A stretch of 29,318 nt of DNA from the IMG/VR virus record IMGVR_UViG_2675903231_000002, one strand, 5' to 3'. A program made the translations under genes and the position numbers. Below, one piece after another: positions 5,601 to 19,785 of the stretch. Position 1 is the first letter of the stretch. The number at the start of each line of letters is the position of its first letter. The stretch comes from an uncultured virus (IMG/VR IMGVR_UViG_2675903231_000002) (taxonomy: Duplodnaviria; Heunggongvirae; Uroviricota; Caudoviricetes). Under the pieces are notes generated by a model. That model searched no databases, was not told the origin of the DNA, and worked only from the letters and a program-made list of their open reading frames with translations.

Positions 5601-5978
5601 TCGCATGAAAAGGTCGGCGATATCTCCACCGTCCGGTACGATGAGAATGCGGGACTGTTCTGGCGCCAACTGCTCATCCACAGCCGACTTGTGCAGGATG
5701 ATCGCGTGCGTGAGCTTGCCGATGGGCCGCGTCACGAACCGATATCCGTGCTTGTCTGTGAAGATGTTGTCGGAATCAAAGCTCGACCGATTCCGCTTCA
5801 AACGCAGCCGGCTTCCCTTAATCGCGTGCGCCACAATGGCTCGGGTCGCACTATCCAGGTCAATGAGGCCTGCAGCGACGAGATCGTCACCGTTGCGTTG
5901 AAAGTTCCGGCGGGTCACGATGAAGTGCACCGCCGCCTCGACGTAATGCTTGTCGTCGCTGTAAACGAGTGTCTTCAC
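2691..5978 (-). CDS. SNF2-like superfamily 2 helicase with a Zn-ribbon insertion
   Basis: Walker A SDMGTGKS, DELH, motif III LTGT and motif VI QAARRAWRIGQ. CPEC and CTEC pairs lie between motifs I and II. Confidence 0.9.
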   Translation of the reverse strand: MKTLVYSDDKHYVEAAVHFIVTRRNFQRNGDDLVAAGLIDLDSATRAIVAHAIKGSRLRLKRNRSSFDSDNIFTDKHGYRFVTRPIGKLTHAIILHKSAVDEQLAPEQSRILIVPDGGDIADLFMRRFAGDFNLPYVAEWKDVIWLACNRRNFVQQLSVWSDPDVPDWKHVQAFEVSPNLTEEAAKNLLSDLLRSGSIQLPEGLTDAPALGEVLNPDENGEYHVIDYLQAYAPHLATTIEDMATPAHDLDRPINPAIAQMARVPFPAQAHTVQAILNGLEQSKGVIVSSDMGTGKSIISLATAKALAERSKRGFAVLLLVPGITIPKWIRDEIGKTLPGTPVTVFESWKDVVRYRDNEVRNGKKPLEFVLLSRDTAKLGMPKVPALIYKERVIVAQRPETKDEKNRKTVLVAHGGAVKYMPGTPDAAITVFALEDVWICPECHGIQKKTTQTAWKEAKKHDCVEDQLAELKLGFSDLATGVEEYTAVGIGGTERRRTRYVFKKSITEYHCTECGANLMRDAVPEREPVSGLKHRRLQPAWFIQRYLRGYFDLVIVDELHQYKSNSGQGEAMGAIVGASRRVLGLTGTLSDGKASSLYHLLWRICPAEMKADGLDHRSLNKFVHLYGTLEQRGRYAADEVTEAGGTTSRKVILNPPKEIPGLSPKLFVNHLADKTVFLELGDMGLPLVELEERPIFVDMDDEHAVAYRSFHNALEGVMRQQYAIGNQHAFAKFIPSVVNAANQPHMPQEVWVGDESVSFFPPYGPDELTAKERRLLEDIQAELAQNRRCVVYVRYSGEVQQDRRIADVLKQHGIRAQVLQATVSPEDRVEWLEEAVKKGTQVVVCNAKLVEVGLDLLDCPTLMFYQFTDEIATMRQAARRAWRIGQHRTCKVYYYVYNGSYEMVQFKRMLQKRSHAMLLEGRLDKSEVAQFIEQDDKSASTYAIANCLGNVEDLAQKWKTLADKDIPSGVILLAEERFKREIQQAMRRLASETRRLAGVPEPEETIQPVPAAPTPRPVQHAPADAEVIALPLFAVAQEAQDVQGTHRKPVAKATVAQEATPLLTYGEWRKQMGMVEKAKRVKKQSVADNQIMLFAL

Positions 5979-6053
5979 GCCATGCGCCCAGCGTGCACCA
6001 CGTCCGGGGCTTCGGCCCCGGTTTCGTGATGCACCGGGGCTTTCGCCTCCTTT
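5979..6053 (-). promoter_or_regulatory. Alternating inverted-repeat switch upstream of the helicase
   Basis: GCCCCGGT/ACCGGGGC competes with GTGCATCACG..CCGGGGC/GCCCCGG.CGTGGTGCAC. Confidence 0.7.
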
Positions 6054-6080
6054 GCGTGGTGATTTATGCAGGTCGCGTGG

Positions 6081-7130
6081 TCACTGCAAGTCCAAAATCG
6101 TCCCGTCCGGCTGGATGGTCCGCACCGCGGTCACGTAGGATTCGGTGTCGATGATGGTCTCCGACCCGTCGTCGTTTACCACCACTTCGCGCTCAACGAT
6201 TTTCCGCGTCATGCCGACGACCATGTGCCTGTTCTCGCCTACACCGACCGCGCCATTGAGCGCACCGGCCGCGATGAGCGTGGCCATGTGCGTGCGCCGA
6301 AACGGCAAGAGTGGGCGGCGCAGCGTTGAACCTGTGTCGATGGGCATGAGCATGTTGGCCGCCACCTTGAATGCTTCGGACTGTGCGAGATCGAGCCGCA
6401 GTTCTGCTTCATCGAGGATGTATCCCCGGAACAGAATTTGCGTGTCGATGTTCTCCGCAGTAGGCACCGTCCAACGTCGGCCGTCCGGTGCGTCCAGGTA
6501 CGGCATTGGCAGGTTCTCGTCTTTGCCGTAGGCCAAAAGCTCATTTTTGACTTGGCGATCGGCTTCGGTCATCTCCTTGGAACTGGTGAGATTCCGTTGA
6601 CGGCGACGCCCGAAGACCACAACCTGTTTGAAAGCCTTGTACTCGTCATCATCGAACCGGTACACGGCCAAGTCGGTGTAACGGTGAACCAGTGTGCTCA
6701 CCATTTCTGAACCGAGCGTGTACCGCGGGATGATGTACACAAGCACGCCATCCGGAGCCAGGTATTTCGTCAAGTCCTTCAGGAAAATGAGTTCCTTGCG
6801 GAATATCTCCCCTCCGAGACCCGACTGCGAATCGTACGGCGGGTTGAGCCACATCAGCTGCATGCCGGCAGGTTCAACACGGGCCCATTCGTATCCGCAA
6901 TGCACAACCTGGTCAAGTTGCTCCTTCGCCTTCAGCGCGCGCTGTCCATCGAGTTCGATTCCGTATGTCACCGCGTCCAAGGGTGCAACCGACGCCAGTG
7001 CCTCACCTTCGCCGCAGCACGGGTCGAACCAGCGTGCGGGGCCTGACGAAACAAGGCGGTCGCGAATCTTCTCCACCATGTTGAGCGGAGTCGGATAGTA
7101 CCCCATCTTCGCGATACCTGCGTAGCGCAT
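6081..7130 (-). CDS. SAM-dependent DNA amino-methyltransferase (DUF6094-like)
   Basis: Motifs GYYPTP, FDPCCGEG (motif I), YGIELD and LNPPY (motif IV). Start re-assigned to ATG 7130 (MRYAGIAKMG). Confidence 0.88.
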   Translation of the reverse strand: MRYAGIAKMGYYPTPLNMVEKIRDRLVSSGPARWFDPCCGEGEALASVAPLDAVTYGIELDGQRALKAKEQLDQVVHCGYEWARVEPAGMQLMWLNPPYDSQSGLGGEIFRKELIFLKDLTKYLAPDGVLVYIIPRYTLGSEMVSTLVHRYTDLAVYRFDDDEYKAFKQVVVFGRRRQRNLTSSKEMTEADRQVKNELLAYGKDENLPMPYLDAPDGRRWTVPTAENIDTQILFRGYILDEAELRLDLAQSEAFKVAANMLMPIDTGSTLRRPLLPFRRTHMATLIAAGALNGAVGVGENRHMVVGMTRKIVEREVVVNDDGSETIIDTESYVTAVRTIQPDGTILDLQ

Positions 7131-7169
7131 GGCATCCCTCGCGTCTGGCGCTTGGAACGTGGAGGCATC

Positions 7170-7212
7170 CCCCCTCCGTCCCAAACGTGTAGACGGAGGG
7201 GTTCACCTCCTT
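7170..7212. repeat. Direct repeat copy 1 (palindromic, 43 bp)
   Basis: CCCCCTCCGTCCCAAACGTGTAGACGGAGGGGTTCACCTCCTT. It differs from 7504-7547 only in the hairpin loop. Confidence 0.95.
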
Positions 7213-7217
7213 TGTAT

Positions 7218-7469
7218 TCAGTCGTAAAAGTCTGTCGTTTCGTCGCTTCTCCGATTGGAACGGTCCGGCACCACGCGGAGTCCAAAAATACCTTTGGCGA
7301 AAAACGCGATGCCAACCCCTAGAAGGACGATACTAAAGTTATCACATGCCATTTCCTGTGCAGACTTAGGAAACATGTTCCACCCAAAATACCATGTTTC
7401 GAGTGTGTTAAACACTAATGCCAGAAGCATTAGAGCCAACCCAATCCATATCAGAGTCTTGGCTCTCAT
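7218..7469 (-). CDS. Small two-TM membrane protein
   Basis: ATG 7469 with SD AGGGAGG. Two hydrophobic helices. Visibly more AT-rich than the flanking genes. Confidence 0.8.
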   Translation of the reverse strand: MRAKTLIWIGLALMLLALVFNTLETWYFGWNMFPKSAQEMACDNFSIVLLGVGIAFFAKGIFGLRVVPDRSNRRSDETTDFYD

Positions 7470-7503
7470 CGTTGTATCCTCCCTTGGTATGACGCGGAAG
7501 GAT

Positions 7504-7547
7504 CCCCCTCCGTCCCAAGCGTGCAAGACGGAGGGGTTCACCTCCTT
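7504..7547. repeat. Direct repeat copy 2 (palindromic, 44 bp)
   Basis: CCCCCTCCGTCCCAAGCGTGCAAGACGGAGGGGTTCACCTCCTT. Confidence 0.95.
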
Positions 7548-7559
7548 GGTTTTACTGAT

Positions 7560-7784
7560 TCAGCGCCCTTCCCCACGTTTTGACCGAGCCAACAAGTCAG
7601 AACGTCGAAAGTCCATGTACTTGCTCAGCTCAATTTTCAGGGCTTCAATCTCCGAAGGGGTGAGCTCAGATGTGTCCAGGTCGATGAACACAGACCTCGC
7701 GTCTTCAAAAACCCCTTCTAATTCTTGTTCCACTTGTGGTAACCGTTCACTGGTCCGCATGTTGCCGACACGTGGACGAGCCAA
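7560..7784 (-). CDS. Small hypothetical protein
   Basis: TTG start with SD AAAGGAG. Co-oriented and fills the gap between neighbours. Confidence 0.65.
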   Translation of the reverse strand: MARPRVGNMRTSERLPQVEQELEGVFEDARSVFIDLDTSELTPSEIEALKIELSKYMDFRRSDLLARSKRGEGR

Positions 7785-7850
7785 TGAGACATCTCCTTTG
7801 TGCCTATACCGGGTTAAATCGCACCGGCGTAGCGAATGATGTAATGGTGT

Positions 7851-8093
7851 TCAGCGCACGAATGCTCTCGGGTGCCAAACCGGTTCTGTTGAGACCGGCT
7901 TAACCAGCCTCAGCCTCGGAAATTCGGGCTGATCGGGTGTTGTGACGGGTGTTGCGATCGCAGCCTCTCCGCTTACCGACACCCGACGCCAACGACTGAG
8001 CCGGTTCAACCGTCTCTCCACCTTGGCCACAAACCGTCCGTACCAGCTATCCGTGCACTCTGTCCACAACAGTCCGTCCGCTATTGCTCTCAT
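7851..8093 (-). CDS. Small basic hypothetical protein
   Basis: ATG with SD GAGAGGGG. Co-oriented. Confidence 0.6.
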   Translation of the reverse strand: MRAIADGLLWTECTDSWYGRFVAKVERRLNRLSRWRRVSVSGEAAIATPVTTPDQPEFPRLRLVKPVSTEPVWHPRAFVR

Positions 8094-8185
8094 TTTCGTC
8101 CCCTCTCGCCCTGCAAGTAGGGGACGTAGAAGGCTTGCGCCCTCTGTCCCCTAGCTTGCAGACAGAGGGCTTAGCCCCCTTTTCG
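8094..8185 (-). promoter_or_regulatory. Alternating inverted-repeat switch
   Basis: GCCCTCTGTC/GACAGAGGGC plus CGTCCCCT/AGGGGACG (hides the SD) compete with CTGCAAGCTAGGGGAC/GTCCCCTACTTGCAG. Confidence 0.75.
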
Positions 8186-8192
8186 ATTGATG

Positions 8193-8585
8193 TTATCGGT
8201 CGATCTGCTCCGCGATGTACTCGAGTTGCTCAAGCAGTTCTCGGTTGTTGAGCAGCTGAATTGACCATGGGGCCCAAAATACGCGGCTTGCTGCCTCACA
8301 CCAACGCTTCATGTCGTTCACAAGATCATGCTCGATCCCATACGCGAACGTGTGAATTGCGTCGGTCATTTCCTGGAACGACTTTACTTTTTGCTGCAGA
8401 ACCGTGTCTGGAATCCAAACAAACTTCCACCGGCCATCAGCTTCAATAACGTACCCGTATTTCTCATGCACGAGGGTCAGCACGGGGCTGTCGTAGGTGT
8501 ACGACCATCCCCGTTGGAATAGATCGTCCAGGGCTTGCAGCGTTTCAGGAGATGGTTTCTGGAGCTTACTTGTGTCTCGTTCCAT
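8193..8585 (-). CDS. Hypothetical protein
   Basis: ATG with SD GAGGAGGAG. 130 aa. Confidence 0.75.
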   Translation of the reverse strand: MERDTSKLQKPSPETLQALDDLFQRGWSYTYDSPVLTLVHEKYGYVIEADGRWKFVWIPDTVLQQKVKSFQEMTDAIHTFAYGIEHDLVNDMKRWCEAASRVFWAPWSIQLLNNRELLEQLEYIAEQIDR

Positions 8586-8609: not shown

Positions 8610-10082
8610 TTATTGTAGTGCTTCAATGACGAACGAAAGCGTCGCATCGTCGGCCACCTGCGGCTTGGCAATCACGTCGCTGAACGGCCGGACGGAACGG
8701 TCGTCGTATCCTATCACGACAGAGATCACCTGAAACTCCTTCTCGTTTTTCACCCGGGCGAATTCCCCGTGCAAAAACTTGTCGGAGACTCGGCTTTCCC
8801 CGTCGGTGATGAACACGATGTCGCCTTTCTTGAACGACGCTTCGTCCATGATCTGCACAGCCTCTTTCAGCGGTCTTTCAAAGTTTGTACCGCCGTTAAA
8901 GAAGTGCTGCGCCATTTCAACGAGTTGAACGGGCGACGCGTCCTTTGGCCGGGGCCACTTCTGCACGAAAATCTCGGGCTCGCTTCCGAAGTGCACCACG
9001 GCAAAGGCTCGCCTTTCCCGCCGTGCGATGGCGAACAGGGCCAGGGCGATGCCCTTCTCCCAGATTTCGACCGTACCAGCCGTGCTTCCGGATTCGTCAA
9101 GGCAAACCACGATGGGGCCCTGTCCTTCCCGCTCGAAGCCACGCAAGTCGTATTGCAACAGTCGGCGTTCTGCGAACCGTTGGATGAAATCATCCTCGGT
9201 CGCTGGGTCGGCCAGCAACAACAACTCCGATGGCAGGATGTTCGCGAGGTCGTCGCCCATCGTGATGTTGACGATCTCGGTCGGCGGATGAATGGTCCGG
9301 TTTTTGCGCTTGTTGAGGGCCATCATCTGCATACGGCCCGCCATCCGAGCGATCTCCCGGACGTGCGGATTCGTGCGCAGGATGTGCGCCAGTTCCAAGC
9401 GCTCCTTCCCACTCACCGGCTTACCGTCACCCATTCCGACACCAAACGCCTGCATCATGCGTTGATCTTCCTGCGCTTCCTGAACCGCCTGCTCCAACGC
9501 CTGTCGGACAGCACGGCCTATCGAACCGCTTTGAGCGTCGAATGCCTGCTCAAATTGGTCCGTGGCCTGTTGGAGCGTCTGCATCAGGTCGGCGGCTTGT
9601 TTTTGGAGCGCTTGTATTTGGTCAAGCAGCTGTGCCGCGGCTTGGCTATCTGGCATGGCATTCGCGGCTTCCTGGTACGCTTCGGCCTGGTCCAGCAGTT
9701 GTTGTAGCTGTTGTTCCAAGTCCTGTACTTGGTGTGCCGCGTGCCTGACATCCTCCGGCATCGCCTGTTCCAAGGCGTCCCGGAGGCTGAGCGACCCCAG
9801 CGCCGCACTGTACTCGTCCATCTGCGTCGTTTGACGCAGGTCTTTCCAAGCTGTTTGGCGCATGAGGTTTTCCATCACACGGCGGTTCACCGTGGGGCCC
9901 TGTTCGTTGATGTGTGGGCTCGCCTTGAAAAGGCTCGCCCACACATCCCGCATGAGACCCTGAAATGGTTCTTCCTTAACCGCAGCCTGAATCCGCTCGG
10001 ACTCTTCGAGGATCCGGTTCCAGGTCCGACGGTCGTAGCGATCTGTCTCAATTGCACCCACGTCGCTCAGATTCCCAGGCAT
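8610..10082 (-). CDS. VWA-domain protein (ViaA/CoxE-like)
   Basis: MIDAS motif DESGS, then GGTNF and FITDGE. Q/A-rich coiled coil. Overlaps the AAA gene. Confidence 0.9.
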   Translation of the reverse strand: MPGNLSDVGAIETDRYDRRTWNRILEESERIQAAVKEEPFQGLMRDVWASLFKASPHINEQGPTVNRRVMENLMRQTAWKDLRQTTQMDEYSAALGSLSLRDALEQAMPEDVRHAAHQVQDLEQQLQQLLDQAEAYQEAANAMPDSQAAAQLLDQIQALQKQAADLMQTLQQATDQFEQAFDAQSGSIGRAVRQALEQAVQEAQEDQRMMQAFGVGMGDGKPVSGKERLELAHILRTNPHVREIARMAGRMQMMALNKRKNRTIHPPTEIVNITMGDDLANILPSELLLLADPATEDDFIQRFAERRLLQYDLRGFEREGQGPIVVCLDESGSTAGTVEIWEKGIALALFAIARRERRAFAVVHFGSEPEIFVQKWPRPKDASPVQLVEMAQHFFNGGTNFERPLKEAVQIMDEASFKKGDIVFITDGESRVSDKFLHGEFARVKNEKEFQVISVVIGYDDRSVRPFSDVIAKPQVADDATLSFVIEALQ

Positions 10083-11191
10083 TTGCTCGTCACTCCTTTG
10101 AGCAGTTCTTCCACCTTCTTGTCGGCTTCCTGGATCCGTTGAATCTTGGATGGAGAGCCGCCAGCGGAGATGAAGGCCTGGATCTGCGTGCGGATGGTCT
10201 TGAGTTTCTTGATCGCTTCCGTCCCGATGGCAATCGCTTGGTCGTCCGAGGCTTTCATCGCGTTGTTCGCGATGTCCCGGGCATCCTCAAGCAACTCGGC
10301 CACCTGACCGGCCACCGGGTCGAGGCGCTTCCGGACGATGGTCGCCACGGTCGCCTTTTGCGACGGGTCCTCCCACAGCGCGTGCTGCAGGATTTCCGCG
10401 TCTTCCTCCAAGACAACGTGGTCGCGTCCGGCCAGCACAGCCCGGGCGGGCAGTAGGCGCTTGGCCACCTGCACCCAGCGGCGGTCGGAGAGGAAAATCC
10501 CCTCTTGCGCCAGATCGGTGCGCAGTGTTACCAGCGCATCTGCGACGGATTGGTCAATCGGAATTTGCTCCGCCAGGTGCTGCAACAGGTTCAGTTCCGC
10601 CAAGGTGATTGGTGCGGGAGACTGCGCTGGCGACTGCATCAGCATCGCCGCAAAGTTTCCGTCGTCCTTGACGTATCCCGGCTCGTACCGCAGCATGAAC
10701 CGGTCGAATACGGCCTGCAGCTCCTCCTCCTGCGGATACTCGTTGGATGTCCCAATGAGCGTCTTGAGTGGGGACGGCTCTTGCCGCGTCCCGTTGTAGA
10801 ACACCCGCTCGTTGATGAGCGTGAGCAGGGCGTTCAGGATCGCGCTGTTGGCCTTGAAAATTTCGTCCAGGTAAGCGATGTGCGCCGTAGGCAGCTTTCC
10901 GGCAGTGATCCGCTCGTATTGACCCGCCTTGAGTTTGGCTAGGTCGTACGGGCCGAACAGCTCTTCCGGAGTGCTGAACTTGGTGAGCAACCACTGGAAG
11001 TAGTTGCAACCCTCAATCAAACCCGACAGTGCCACTGTAATCGCACTTTTCGCCGTACCCGGAGGGCCGATAAGAAGCACGTGAACGTTGGCGACCAGGG
11101 CCGTGATGAGCCCATCCACAACATCCTCGCGTTCTTTGAACTGCCCCTGCAGATACGTCCGGATGTCGTTCAACTTTTGAATGGCGTTCAT
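10067..11191 (-). CDS. MoxR/RavA-family AAA+ ATPase
   Basis: Motifs GPPGTAKS, STPEELFGP, LDEIFKANSAILNALL and DRF. Confidence 0.92.
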   Translation of the reverse strand: MNAIQKLNDIRTYLQGQFKEREDVVDGLITALVANVHVLLIGPPGTAKSAITVALSGLIEGCNYFQWLLTKFSTPEELFGPYDLAKLKAGQYERITAGKLPTAHIAYLDEIFKANSAILNALLTLINERVFYNGTRQEPSPLKTLIGTSNEYPQEEELQAVFDRFMLRYEPGYVKDDGNFAAMLMQSPAQSPAPITLAELNLLQHLAEQIPIDQSVADALVTLRTDLAQEGIFLSDRRWVQVAKRLLPARAVLAGRDHVVLEEDAEILQHALWEDPSQKATVATIVRKRLDPVAGQVAELLEDARDIANNAMKASDDQAIAIGTEAIKKLKTIRTQIQAFISAGGSPSKIQRIQEADKKVEELLKGVTSKCLGI

Positions 11192-11197
11192 CAGAAA

Positions 11198-11266
11198 TCT
11201 CCTTTCGCCCCCGTGCTGTGCCGGGGGCTAAGGTTGATTAGCCCCGCACAGCCGGGGGAGAAGGAG
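11198..11266 (-). promoter_or_regulatory. Long hairpin from the upstream stop codon to the SD of the AAA gene
   Basis: CTCCTTCTCCCCCGGCTGTGCGGGGCTAA pairs with TTAGCCCCGGCACAGCACGGGGGCGAAAGGAG. Confidence 0.8.
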
Positions 11267-12166: not shown

Positions 12167-12190
12167 TGTTGAATTCCTCCTTTTGTTTCG

Positions 12191-12331
12191 TTTCAGTGGT
12201 CTCAGGGTTCAGAGCTATCCTCTTGCCTTGAGACTGACGAATTTGTCCTCATCTCCAAGCGCCACCCGCCTGCACCGGGTGGGTGAATTTACCCGGTGCA
12301 GCGGGTTTGGCTTAGAGTGGGAACCACTGAA
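12191..12331 (-). promoter_or_regulatory. Multi-branched intergenic structure
   Basis: TTCAGTGGT/ACCACTGAA closing stem with an inner CCCGCTGCACCGGGT/ACCCGGTGCAGGCGGG hairpin. GTCTCAAGG/CCCTGAGAC competes with the closing stem. Confidence 0.7.
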
Positions 12332-16433: not shown

Positions 16434-16826
16434 TTACTGATTATGCTGGTTATGGCGACTGTGCCGAAGGTCAGTGAGCACCGTAACGACCGAGAAACGG
16501 GCCTCCCCTCGGACATTTGAAATCGCCAGAGCGATTGCCAGCGAAGGTTTCCCTTTCTCAGGGCGACCCACGATTGTAAATACGGGATCTCGATTCTGAA
16601 AGGGGTTCTCACCGTATGGGTACGTGTACGGTGAATGCATTTCGACTGGCTCTCCGTTACGTATGGCCAGTTTGACCACCGCCTCGGGGATACCGCGTTC
16701 AACCATGCGACCCTTGGCATGGTCGGTGAACTTGACCAGGTTGTGCTCCAGATGCATCTGGAGAACACTCTTCAGTAAGGGCCAGTGCTTTTGATACGCG
16801 TTTCCGTTTCCACCTGAGGTCTCCAT
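16434..16826 (-). CDS. DUF4258-family protein
   Basis: VKFTDHAKGRMVERGI...FSVVTV. Confidence 0.8.
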   Translation of the reverse strand: METSGGNGNAYQKHWPLLKSVLQMHLEHNLVKFTDHAKGRMVERGIPEAVVKLAIRNGEPVEMHSPYTYPYGENPFQNRDPVFTIVGRPEKGKPSLAIALAISNVRGEARFSVVTVLTDLRHSRHNQHNQ

Positions 16827-16905
16827 TCAACCGCCCATCGTGCAACACCACCGAGAGGGTTCCCCTCTCGCGTGTTGAACGAGAGGGGGCCTTTCCCTCC
16901 TTTCC
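16827..16905 (-). promoter_or_regulatory. Alternating inverted-repeat switch downstream of ssb
   Basis: CCCTCTCG / CGAGAGGG / CCCTCTCG triple allows two exclusive hairpins. Confidence 0.7.
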
Positions 16906-16913
16906 TGGTGTCG

Positions 16914-19051: not shown

Positions 19052-19108
19052 GCCGATCCCCCCCTCGTGCACGTGCAGTGGCTTGTGCATACCGCATAAG
19101 AAGCACTC

Positions 19109-19171
19109 TCAGAGTGTTTTGGGGTACTTGTCGGTAAGCGTGAGGGGTTCAATGTGAGGATTACTTCGCAT
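19109..19171 (-). CDS. Possible 20-aa leader peptide
   Basis: MRSNPHIEPLTLTDKYPKTL, with SD GGGAG 8 nt upstream inside a stem. Confidence 0.3.
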   Translation of the reverse strand: MRSNPHIEPLTLTDKYPKTL

Positions 19172-19241
19172 TTGCATCTCTCCCGATTCTCCCCGCTTGG
19201 CCGCCGGGGAGACTGATTTTTCCCCGCGGCTGGGGATCGGG

Positions 19242-19318
19242 AAATAAAAAGGCAAGCGCTAAAAAAGCATCTCGACACTTGGATTGATCCAAGAATCCAG
19301 ACGCTTGAAGCGCTTGCC
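19242..19318 (-). terminator. Long-stem intrinsic terminator/attenuator in the operon leader
   Basis: GGCAAGCGCT...AGCGCTTGCC followed by TTTTTATTT. The inner stem AAGCGTCT..CTTGGAT-CA-ATCCAAG..AGATGCTT is followed by its own T run. Confidence 0.75.
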
Positions 19319-19690
19319 CTTTAACCGCCTTCGGCTTACGCCGTCCAGCGGATTCCCTACCTACATGTTTGCGACTGCCTTCGCCCCGTCACCGGTCGCA
19401 TTCGGATGATCAACGGGGGATCCAACATCTGTCCCCGGATACCGTCTCGTTCAGTGAGACCGGCTGCTTCGTATCCGGGTAATCCCATCGACCTGATTGC
19501 CAAGGTGGTGATGGGAAGATGATAATGCGTCACAGACTAAAGCGACCTCGCAGAGCGCCCCGACTCGACAGTTGCTGGATCGTTACCAGGAAAGTGGCGC
19601 GCCTTTCCTTCGCTCACTTAGTGAGGATCCAGAACTCCGGCACTCACCCGCTTAGGGGCTATTACGTGCCTTCAAACACCTTCTGAGTAC
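19242..19690 (-). ncRNA. Putative ~450 nt structured leader RNA
   Basis: Lies between the promoter and the terminator with no credible ORF and continuous stems (e.g. CCCGGATAC/GTATCCGGG, TCCCATC/GATGGGA, TGCGAC/GTCGCA, AGGAAAG/CTTTCCT, GGCAC/GTGCC). Confidence 0.55.
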
Positions 19691-19696
19691 AGCGTT

Positions 19697-19725
19697 ATCA
19701 TATCTCAAGATTATTACACGCGCAA
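19697..19725 (-). promoter_or_regulatory. SigmaA-type promoter
   Basis: TTGCGC (19725-19720), a 17 bp spacer, then TATGAT (19702-19697), in an AT-rich patch directly after a terminator. Confidence 0.75.
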
Positions 19726-19736
19726 TAGACCTTGAC

Positions 19737-19769
19737 AAAAAATTAGCACCACCTCTTGGCGGTGCTAAT
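19737..19769 (-). terminator. Intrinsic terminator of the Tad/S1 block
   Basis: ATTAGCACCGCCAAGAGGTGGTGCTAAT followed by TTTTT, about 16 nt after the S1 gene stop. Confidence 0.88.
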
Positions 19770-19785
19770 CACCAGTTGCCTGGCT

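Follow-up and report, generated by a model that had tools for sequence, protein, structure and literature searches.

Intercistronic leaders with two predicted alternative folds and a Shine-Dalgarno look-alike in a plasmid-like element of Alicyclobacillaceae

The window examined here, a stretch of 29,318 nucleotides from an uncultured virus record (IMG/VR IMGVR_UViG_2675903231_000002), corresponds to positions 62001-91318 of contig C49 in genome G000 and belongs to a plasmid-like or integrated element of Alicyclobacillaceae. Five gaps between consecutive genes on its minus strand, each 87-102 nt long, contain leaders of a common layout: the upstream stop codon is followed after 9-27 nt by a tract resembling a Shine-Dalgarno (SD) sequence, then by a G+C-rich hairpin, by more complementary segments and by the start codon of the next gene. 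Each leader is built of five alternating G-type and C-type segments, namely segment 0 (the SD look-alike), segments 1, 2 and 3, and segment 4 (the start-proximal ribosome site). An earlier reading, made from the letters alone and called here the sequence-only reading, had noticed the strong SD-like tract soon after the upstream stop, which is indeed present at all five sites, and had proposed that the segments act as a switch. The observation of such segmented intercistronic leaders is confirmed by the present study, and mutually exclusive pairings among several segments are kept in relatives. The five-segment switch as first put forward is partly supported; its key pairings differ from those found here. 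We place slightly better than even confidence in a model in which these are sense-strand RNA leaders that would control translation of the next cistron through two exclusive folds and ribosome traffic, rather than through a ligand.

Segments and folds of the leaders

We refer to the leaders by the genes that they precede: the helicase leader (hel-type), the methyltransferase or MT leader (MT-type), the p83 and p80 leaders of two small genes (related to the MT-type) and the DUF4258 leader (C-type). Coordinates of the leaders and their parts are collected in Table 1. The SD-like tract takes the form of AAAGGAGG(TGA), AA(A)GGAGGTGA, AAAAGGGGG or AAAGGAGGG. Patterns written for the three sequence families match only these five sites in the 3.79 Mb genome. 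A generic pattern, A[AG]GG[AG]GG with a perfect hairpin of at least 8 bp within 8 nt, has 14 matches (13 distinct sites) in the same 3.79 Mb, five of which are these leaders, clustered in a 10.9-kb part of contig C49. Enrichment of the bare motif AARGGRGG in the window is slight: it occurs 7 times against 3.4 expected, and 6/100 shuffles reach 7.

The minimum free energy (MFE) folds of the five leaders have z scores of -2.8 to -7.75, and for each leader none of 200 shuffles was equally stable. When all pairs of the MFE fold were forbidden and the sequence was refolded, a second, disjoint fold appeared 0.7 to 8.3 kcal/mol above the MFE. Compared with the same quantity in shuffles, these second folds have z scores of -7.0, -7.25, -2.2, -7.8 and -3.1, reached by 0/200, 0/200, 7/200, 0/200 and 0/200 shuffles, respectively. 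A disjoint second fold is likewise found in all 36 distinct homologs of the MT-type (17) and hel-type (19) leaders, with z scores of -2.7 to -8.4 that at most 2/100 shuffles reach.

According to the models, the two folds differ in which ribosome site they hide. Fold Y would consist of hairpin 1:2, usually wrapped by a 0:3 helix; it would conceal segment 0 and leave segment 4 either free or in a weaker local 3:4 hairpin. Fold X would be a single long hairpin in which 1:4 encloses 2:3, burying the start-proximal site and exposing segment 0 at the hairpin foot. The pair of folds is exactly X plus Y in 15/17 MT-type and 16/19 hel-type leaders; elsewhere a 0:1 variant stands in for X. Among the MT-type leaders the MFE topology is X in 11 and Y, followed by a small hairpin over the SD, in the remaining 6. 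Fold X of the hel family leaves segment 0 mostly unpaired (fraction paired 0.0-0.5) and the ribosome site paired, and fold Y does the reverse. The hairpin of fold X spans 53-82 nt. Between segment 0 and the hairpin foot there are 0-5 nt (10 nt in one MT-type leader), and another 0-10 nt separate the foot from the start codon; in leaders without further extension of the predicted hairpin, the spacers flanking the core helix add up to 9-14 nt.

In G000, the two folds of the helicase leader have energies of -48.6 and -46.3 kcal/mol, and those of the MT leader -45.6 (X) and -44.9 (Y) kcal/mol. Fold X of the helicase leader joins GCCC of segment 1 to GGGC of the start-proximal site (5986-5991), and compensatory changes in the middle stem of this leader were spotted by eye among homologs. 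Across the two folds, segment 1 has two conserved, mutually exclusive partners, segment 2 and segment 4. The pairing scheme of the sequence-only reading (0:1 with 2:3, or 1:2 with 3:4) omits 1:4, the conserved competitor of 1:2, which encloses 2:3, and it makes segment 1 the main partner of segment 0, which the predicted folds mostly pair with segment 3. Its proposal that 1:2 and 3:4 together close the true SD survives in part: 1:2 covaries and 3:4 hairpins are predicted to close the true SD in the p83, p80 and MT leaders, but 3:4 is without covariation support. All four pairings that it quoted for the p80 leader (8094-8192) are present as written. It had also ended the helicase leader at 6053; the site was correct, but the leader extends to 6080, up to the methyltransferase stop (6083-6081).

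The complementarity of segment 0 to 16S rRNA was predicted with a Bacillus-type anti-SD motif, which may not be exactly the tail of the host; the 16S 3' end is absent from the assembly. With this tail, segment 0 is a stronger match than the start-proximal site in 36/36 leaders, the mean duplex energies being -16.7 versus -7.4 kcal/mol in the MT family and -13.3 versus -5.5 kcal/mol in the hel family. The five segment-0 sites of the window give -11.3 to -17.1 kcal/mol, and the clear SDs of other window genes about -9 to -16 kcal/mol. Near the start codon, hel-type and C-type leaders offer only GGGCG. The core AGGTGA is invariant in 17/17 MT-type leaders although its predicted partner, segment 3, varies. 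A start codon properly spaced from segment 0 is missing in four of the window's five leaders, as the sequence-only reading had said to be usual; the exception is the helicase leader, in which a GTG (6034-6032) is found 11 nt past GGAGG.

Conservation and covariation

A covariance model of segment 0 and the first hairpin (R1) matches 29 places in 17 of 45 Alicyclobacillaceae genomes, mostly directly 5' of DUF6094 homologs and always adjoining a downstream start codon. Three copies are in G000 (the MT, p83 and p80 leaders), and with strict filters there was no match in 140 genomes of the same class outside Alicyclobacillaceae. The C-type leader is 76-88% identical in at least 11 other genomes, where its flanks are not conserved and the downstream genes differ. 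The leader keeps its place before the methyltransferase gene where the upstream gene is a different one, and the helicase leader keeps its place before the helicase gene where two extra genes sit after the methyltransferase gene. Judged from such comparisons, the leaders appear to be conserved units tied to the downstream gene, and the three sequence families appear to share one architecture. In most of 25 distinct leaders, the upstream stop lies 2-42 nt before the AGGTGA core.

No exact match to the MT-type and hel-type cores was found in viral contigs. Rfam models gave no match in the window at gathering thresholds, and at E values up to 1 the lone match in 5900-8300 was an irrelevant long non-coding RNA model. 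A literature search that had subscription journals outside its scope yielded no description of such leaders. A 16-base pattern was found in at least 118 metagenomic stretches; one of 80 loci (L082) matches R1, and the others are chance matches. Locus L082, a metagenome contig of 1240 nt, has two MT-type leaders 429 nt apart that flank a small gene with repeated 'MDKRLDG' units, and this layout of leader, small gene and leader is the same as at 7131-7559.

Covariation was counted on a plain MAFFT alignment of the 17 MT-type leaders, the quality of which is low around segment 3. Helix 1:2 reaches 98.2% pairing and has three pairs changed on both sides, a score that 0/500 shuffles reach. For helix 1:4 the pairing is 90.2%, and the pairs changed on both sides again number three; 3-10/500 shuffles reach its score, and slid controls are 40-63% paired. 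In two relatives (G024_C23 and G068) identical positions change jointly in segments 1, 2 and 4. An alignment-free check, in which each 5' arm was paired with its own or with a foreign 3' arm, gave -40.5 versus -32.0 kcal/mol for the arms of X, the foreign arm being equally good in 42/196 and 26/197 comparisons; the corresponding difference for Y was small (-30 versus -26 kcal/mol).

The same alignment bears on the question of which strand folds. Helix 1:2 has 11 G-U cells and three non-standard cells, the latter all at the outermost pair, and for this reason the sense strand is taken to be the folding strand, as RNA or, less likely, as sense single-stranded DNA. A reading in which the antisense strand folds, or in which the repeats form a palindromic operator, was rejected, because the G-U wobbles would be A-C mismatches on the other strand.

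Folding order, modes of action and precedents

Folding during transcription was approximated by a heuristic in which the MFE of each growing prefix was accepted if the findpath barrier was 12 kcal/mol or less, and otherwise only added pairs were allowed. Barriers obtained by this prefix-MFE/findpath procedure are direct-path upper bounds, and do not come from stochastic kinetic simulation. Under the heuristic, 0:1 forms first, then 1:2, then 0:3, and the predicted end product at 37 C is Y in 12/17 MT-type and 16/19 hel-type leaders. The helicase and DUF4258 leaders of G000 are trapped in Y with the ribosome site nearly free, X being 7-16 kcal/mol lower; the MT leader of G000 is degenerate between the folds. 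The earlier suggestion that the nascent leader is open first and then relaxes fits the helicase and DUF4258 leaders only, and these with very high predicted barriers of 17-28 kcal/mol; it does not fit p83 and p80. Equilibrium predictions for 37 and for 55 C have the true SD paired in four of the five window leaders. With segment 0 kept out of pairing, as it would be under a bound ribosome, the predicted barrier from Y to X falls from 25.7 to 13.8 kcal/mol in the hel family and from 26.4 to 19.3 kcal/mol in the MT family; the balance also moves toward X by 6-10 kcal/mol, and X is then favoured in 16/16 hel-type and 12/15 MT-type leaders. The proposal that a ribosome on segment 0 flips the switch finds support in silico only, in that occupation of segment 0 would shift the balance to X.

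From these results one might picture the following course of events. Within what looks like an operon of establishment or anti-defence-type genes on the plasmid-like element, Y would form first as the leader is transcribed. Segment 0 would be a real contact for the 30S subunit, whether free or belonging to a ribosome that finishes the upstream gene, and this contact would strip away 0:3 and tip the leader into X. Output would then be set by ribosome traffic together with the kinetics of folding. For the p83, p80 and MT leaders we lean slightly toward the classical reading, in which X would be the off state; for the helicase and DUF4258 leaders we lean slightly toward loading through segment 0.

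Several results weigh against this picture. The true SD of the MT family is paired in both folds, so that neither is clearly 'on'. The p83 leader (7470-7559) is a weak case, whose second fold (z score -2.2, 7/200 shuffles) is not convincing. The predicted Y-to-X (MFE) barriers, with medians of about 25 kcal/mol at 37 C and about 19 kcal/mol at 55 C, are too high to make spontaneous switching plausible within the lifetime of an mRNA. In the p83 and p80 leaders the heuristic goes straight to the closed MFE, p80 being closed kinetically and at equilibrium; a spontaneous switch is therefore refuted for these two by the criterion that the sequence-only reading had itself named, dominance of one conformation both kinetically and thermodynamically. 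In four of the 25 distinct leaders a long frame upstream is lacking, and upstream termination therefore cannot be the sole trigger. The support for 1:4 comes from three double changes, each in a single lineage, and segment 4 must resemble segment 2 in any case because both contain GAGGG. Among the 17 MT-type leaders, 0:1 shows no covariation (it is invariant, 500/500 shuffles being equal) and breaks in both sequences with a changed segment 1. Covariation does not exceed that of controls for 0:3 (81% paired, 89-120/500 shuffles), for 2:3 (76% paired, 236/500 shuffles) or for the local 3:4 hairpin (66% paired).

Other explanations of the leaders differ mainly in the part that they assign to segment 0. 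We entertain tentatively the possibility that segment 0 is itself the working SD: binding of the 30S subunit would drive Y into X, the 53-82 nt hairpin would loop out and a discontinuous ribosome site would assemble itself by the start codon. Segment 0 could act in this manner across the hairpin because the spacers of X are short and because next to nothing resembling an SD is found by the start codon of the helicase and DUF4258 leaders. In these two leaders the 'true SD' would then serve mainly to pair with segment 1, and the two folds would leave exactly one SD exposed at a time. Doubtful, too, is a role as a stabiliser of the STAB-SD type, with segment 0 binding a non-initiating 30S subunit and blocking 5'-to-3' decay by RNase J1 after an upstream cut; the hairpins would merely add stability and the second fold would be a by-product of the reused GGAGG and CCTCC words. 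The host belongs to the Bacillales, a group with RNase J, segment 0 is the best 16S match in 36/36 leaders and AGGTGA is invariant, in the window just one leader of five has a start codon at initiation distance, and leaders occur after upstream genes and after apparently non-coding DNA alike. The orphan SD of cry3A in Bacillus thuringiensis offers a precedent (PMC4113751). However, such a stabiliser leaves unexplained the covariation of segment 1 with the true SD, the hairpin foot that always abuts the start codon in three unrelated families and the disjoint second fold conserved in 36/36 leaders; moreover, segment 0 is base-paired in Y, which is odd for a pure ribosome landing pad. Stabilisation is compatible with the two-state explanation, and the two are not exclusive.

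Coupling through a leader frame concerns the helicase leader alone and seems unlikely. Here segment 0 would be the SD of a short frame starting at GTG, and ribosomes would read through the leader and re-initiate at the helicase start, much as with erm or cat leader peptides or in classical ATGA coupling. A GTG is found 8-12 nt past segment 0 in 15/19 homologs, 13 of these 15 frames either stop by the start codon (7 at +1 and 1 at -3) or fuse with the gene in frame (5), and the start-proximal SD of the helicase gene is poor (-5.2 kcal/mol). Yet 4/19 homologs lack such a start and the peptide is not conserved. The distribution over the three frames, 6:7:2 against an expected 5:5:5, is not clearly non-random, and two of the three frames are tidy by default because 'ATGA' is fixed by the conserved Met-Lys start. 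The GTG also belongs to conserved helices in both folds, and MT-type and C-type leaders have no candidate start. We hold it to be very unlikely that the sequence-only reading is right in its exact form, in which 0:1 with 2:3 is open, 1:2 with 3:4 is closed, and the nascent RNA is open first and then relaxes. In addition to the four pairings at 8094-8192, it can point to an open state there that is a deep minimum with the SD free (-49.4 versus -57.7 kcal/mol), to the transient appearance of 0:1 in prefix folds and to the fact that 1:2 with 3:4 is the MFE of p83 and p80. Against this, the open state would be occupied at equilibrium with a probability of 2.6e-5 (37 C) or 5e-3 (55 C), and 0:1 is displaced once segment 2 is made, the chain proceeding to 0:3 around 1:2 and never to 0:1 with 2:3. 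The pairing 0:1 does not covary and is broken in the two sequences with a changed segment 1; segments 2 and 3 of p83 are adjacent, with no room for a loop; and the conserved 1:4 is left out.

A signal at the level of DNA appears scarcely probable. Hairpins in single-stranded DNA would serve as a priming site, a single-strand promoter or a recombination hot spot for the shuffling of cassettes. Genes for a primase-like protein, SSB, DnaN and recombination are present on the element, which is syntenic with an Alicyclobacillus plasmid of 137 kb carrying AcrIIA9 and PcfJ genes by the helicase gene; the leaders lie at mosaic boundaries, and as DNA both strands fold at -14 to -27 kcal/mol. A parallel could be drawn with the GC-rich sequences, rich in inverted repeats, that precede establishment genes of Bacillus pLS20-family plasmids (PMC8708921). 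But the close ties to the start codon and to 16S complementarity would then be coincidence, and the wobble pairs favour folding of the sense (mRNA-like) strand, although they would also fit a sense strand that is transferred. No promoter-like hexamers occur in 5900-8300. The leaders, at 87-102 nt, are far shorter than the 400-600 bp of those plasmid sequences, the EGeRS1 repeats; they also fall short of the 300-600 nt of inverted repeats that mark a single-strand DNA promoter or an EGeRS1-like element, and the -35/-10 boxes that a single-strand promoter would rebuild in its hairpin have no counterpart in 5900-8300.

The two-state model invites comparison with several known systems. In the erm and cat translational attenuators, pairings 1:2 and 3:4 hide a second SD that an alternative register frees or hides again, and an upstream SD starts the cascade. 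The likeness lies in a set of helices that exclude one another, the SD of the regulated gene being hidden in one of them (X and Y in 36/36 leaders; 1:4 90% paired and covarying). In contrast to erm and cat, MT-type and C-type leaders have no leader peptide, and among hel-type leaders 4/19 are without a start and the peptide is not conserved. In the leaders, 1:2 competes with 1:4 instead of with 2:3 alone, and there is no link to antibiotics. A case related to STAB-SD is the polypurine stabiliser at the 5' end of phage SP82 RNA in Bacillus subtilis. In the cry3A STAB-SD of B. thuringiensis, an orphan SD binds 16S rRNA and stabilises the mRNA without initiating (PMC4113751). The resemblance is that of an SD-like 16S complement located well upstream of the real start in a Bacillales mRNA (PMC4113751). 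The orphan SD of the leaders, however, is part of a conserved five-segment structure and can be base-paired (in Y), is followed after 3-6 nt by a hairpin that has the start-proximal site as its other foot, and recurs between the cistrons of one operon.

Bistable or metastable leaders are also known from toxin mRNAs, among them that of hok. In the leaders of aapA3 of Helicobacter pylori and timP of enterobacteria, the SD is sequestered by successive alternative helices (PMC6733600, PMC13000454). As in these systems, one segment has two partners with coupled covariation, and a folding pathway rather than a ligand would set function. They differ in that they control type I toxins with antisense RNA partners and are not known to contain an invariant orphan SD, whereas the products of the genes here are a methyltransferase, a helicase, small proteins and a DUF4258 protein; an antisense partner was not noticed, although no dedicated search was made. 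T4 genes 25 and 38 have split ribosome-binding sites, and the hairpin of the present leaders (53-82 nt) is far larger than theirs. A ribosome standby site is described for the MS2 coat gene (PMC5934652) and, for thrS, a hairpin tolerated inside a split ribosome-binding site (PMC3936740). The leaders would share with these systems a single-stranded ribosome contact beside stable structure and tolerance of a hairpin between the two parts of a site. Known standby sites, however, are unstructured tails and not perfect SDs, and the site in the leaders alternates with a fold that hides it.

By context, the leaders also resemble the EGeRS1 repeats, which are likewise repeated GC-rich inverted-repeat sequences before establishment-type genes on Bacillales plasmids. 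EGeRS1 repeats are 400-600 bp long, GC-rich and with many inverted repeats, and act by a mechanism that is described as unknown (PMC8708921). They lie directly upstream of the ribosome sites of several establishment and anti-restriction operons and block a reporter only in the native orientation (PMC8708921). By comparison the leaders are short, 87-102 nt, and intercistronic, and no orphan SD is described for EGeRS1 (PMC8708921). It is tempting to speculate that the leaders may bear on these unexplained repeats of Bacillus pLS20-family plasmids. If the two-state model is correct, a claim that is computational, translation of successive genes would be coupled to ribosome traffic and RNA folding without a ligand, in a part of a Gram-positive plasmid with anti-defence-type genes that are thought to need rapid but limited expression. 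The three compact families, with 17, 19 and about 12 natural variants and one segment with two conserved partners, could provide a test bed for models of co-transcriptional folding, and they could likewise be useful for asking what role an orphan SD has in Bacillota.

The element, its genes and other features

The setting is a plasmid-like or integrated element whose host is a member of the Bacillales (Alicyclobacillaceae). Contig C49 (91 kb) has a G+C content of about 55%, versus 63% for the 3.79 Mb genome. The nearest annotated record, that of a circular 137-kb plasmid from Alicyclobacillus sp. ALC3, has an identical gene order and runs on beyond the helicase gene into genes of the AcrIIA9 family and with a PcfJ domain; further relatives are Alicyclobacillus tolerans, A. 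sacchari, A. kakegawensis and A. shizuokensis. The stretch has no match among phage records. All long frames of the window are on the minus strand. They encode a primase-like zinc finger protein, a Gp3-like factor, SSB, a DUF4258 protein, an SbcC-like ATPase, DnaN, a DUF6744 protein, a MoxR-vWA pair, four small proteins, the DUF6094 methyltransferase and the SNF2-type helicase. Prokaryotic E2, JAB and ubiquitin-like proteins are also encoded, and an actin-like partition protein and Tad-type pilus genes are found farther along. NCBIfam provides no names for the small proteins. Going by gene names, the gene block looks like one of establishment or anti-defence genes.

Between 5900 and 8300 there is no promoter-like site on either strand and no terminator-like site on the minus strand, so that the genes of this region are probably co-transcribed. 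Promoters within the leaders were rejected, none being detected. An intrinsic terminator or attenuator was rejected as well: the leader hairpins are not followed by a T-run, and no terminator-like site was found on the minus strand. On the plus strand, the complement of segments 0 and 1 at 7195-7210 and 7530-7547 forms a small hairpin with a T-rich tail that scored as terminator-like; such sites number 3 against 2.7 in shuffles, which is not above chance.

Table 1. Positions of the five leaders and of their parts in the window
Feature	Position	Strand	Details
Helicase leader (hel-type)	5979-6080	-	Between DUF6094 methyltransferase stop (6083-6081) and SNF2-type helicase GTG (5978-5976)
Helicase leader, segment 0, AAAGGAGG	6046-6053	-	16S-tail duplex -11.5 versus -5.2 kcal/mol for start-proximal site (predicted)
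Helicase leader, segment 1, GCCCCGG	6034-6040	-	Pairs with segment 2 (6015-6021) in fold Y
Helicase leader, segments 2 and 3 (CCGGGGC cgaa GCCCCGG)	6004-6021	-	Inner hairpin of fold X
Helicase leader, middle stem (hairpin loop with A')	6022-6033 with 5992-6003	-	Flanks of segments 2/3
19-codon frame in helicase leader	5975-6034	-	GTG (6034-6032) to TGA (5977-5975), overlapping helicase GTG (GTGA)
Methyltransferase leader (MT-type)	7131-7217	-	Between stop of 83-aa gene (7220-7218) and ATG (7130-7128); R1 66.4 bits
MT leader, segment 0, AAAGGAGGTGA	7203-7213	-	16S-tail duplex -16.6 kcal/mol (predicted)
MT leader, segment 1, CCCCTCCGTC	7192-7201	-	Partner segment 2 (7171-7180) in fold Y, segment 4 (7136-7145) in fold X
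MT leader, segment 2, GACGGAGGGG	7171-7180	-	
MT leader, segment 3	7150-7166	-	
MT leader, segment 4, GACGCGAGGG	7136-7145	-	Contains true SD
p83 leader (83-aa membrane-protein gene; MT-type 5' half)	7470-7559	-	ATG 7469-7467; R1 82.8 bits
p83 leader, segment 0, AAGGAGGTGA	7538-7547	-	
p83 leader, hairpins	7527-7536 with 7505-7514; 7496-7503 with 7476-7483	-	Second hairpin over true SD GGGAGGA
p80 leader (80-aa gene; diverged MT-type)	8094-8192	-	ATG 8093-8091; R1 38.1 bits; fold z score -7.75
p80 leader, segment 0, AAAAGGGGG	8175-8183	-	Partner of segment 0 at 8128-8135
p80 leader, segments 1 / 2 / 3 / 4	8161-8170 / 8139-8148 / 8111-8126 / 8097-8104	-	
DUF4258 leader (C-type)	16827-16913	-	ATG 16826-16824
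DUF4258 leader, segment 0, AAAGGAGGG	16895-16903	-	
DUF4258 leader, segments 1 / 2 / 3	16880-16889 / 16862-16870 / 16852-16859	-	
DUF4258 leader, A' / GGGCGG	16841-16851 / 16831-16836	-	

In five relatives, the GTG downstream of segment 0 in the helicase leader is in frame with the helicase start and would add an N-terminal extension of about 20 residues. A leader of another type precedes the MoxR gene (11192-11266, minus strand), where CTCCTTC right after the stop pairs with the true SD GAAAGGAG in a long hairpin (-50.6 kcal/mol). A terminating ribosome would open this hairpin, and the arrangement looks like translational coupling based on structure. Two other intergenic regions of the minus strand, 2604-2690 and 12167-12331, are strongly structured (-47.8 and -73.4 kcal/mol, respectively); in the former, CTCATCCTTTGC close to the upstream stop pairs with the SD region GCAAAGGAGTGA. 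A stretch of about 700 nt at 19091-19785 (minus strand) has a sole frame of 58 aa and two gaps that fold at -121.7 and -94.8 kcal/mol; it contains hairpins followed by T-runs and may mark the boundary of an operon, or else serve as an origin or promoter region.

The regions 58-2325 and 8610-11191 of this one element encode prokaryotic ubiquitin-like/JAB and E2 family D proteins (weak Pfam matches, at about the cut-off) and the MoxR-vWA pair. Finally, an exact 18-nt inverted repeat (GCACAACCTGGTCAAGTT and its complement) is found at 6902-6919 in the methyltransferase gene and at 16729-16746 in the DUF4258 gene, 9.8 kb apart.

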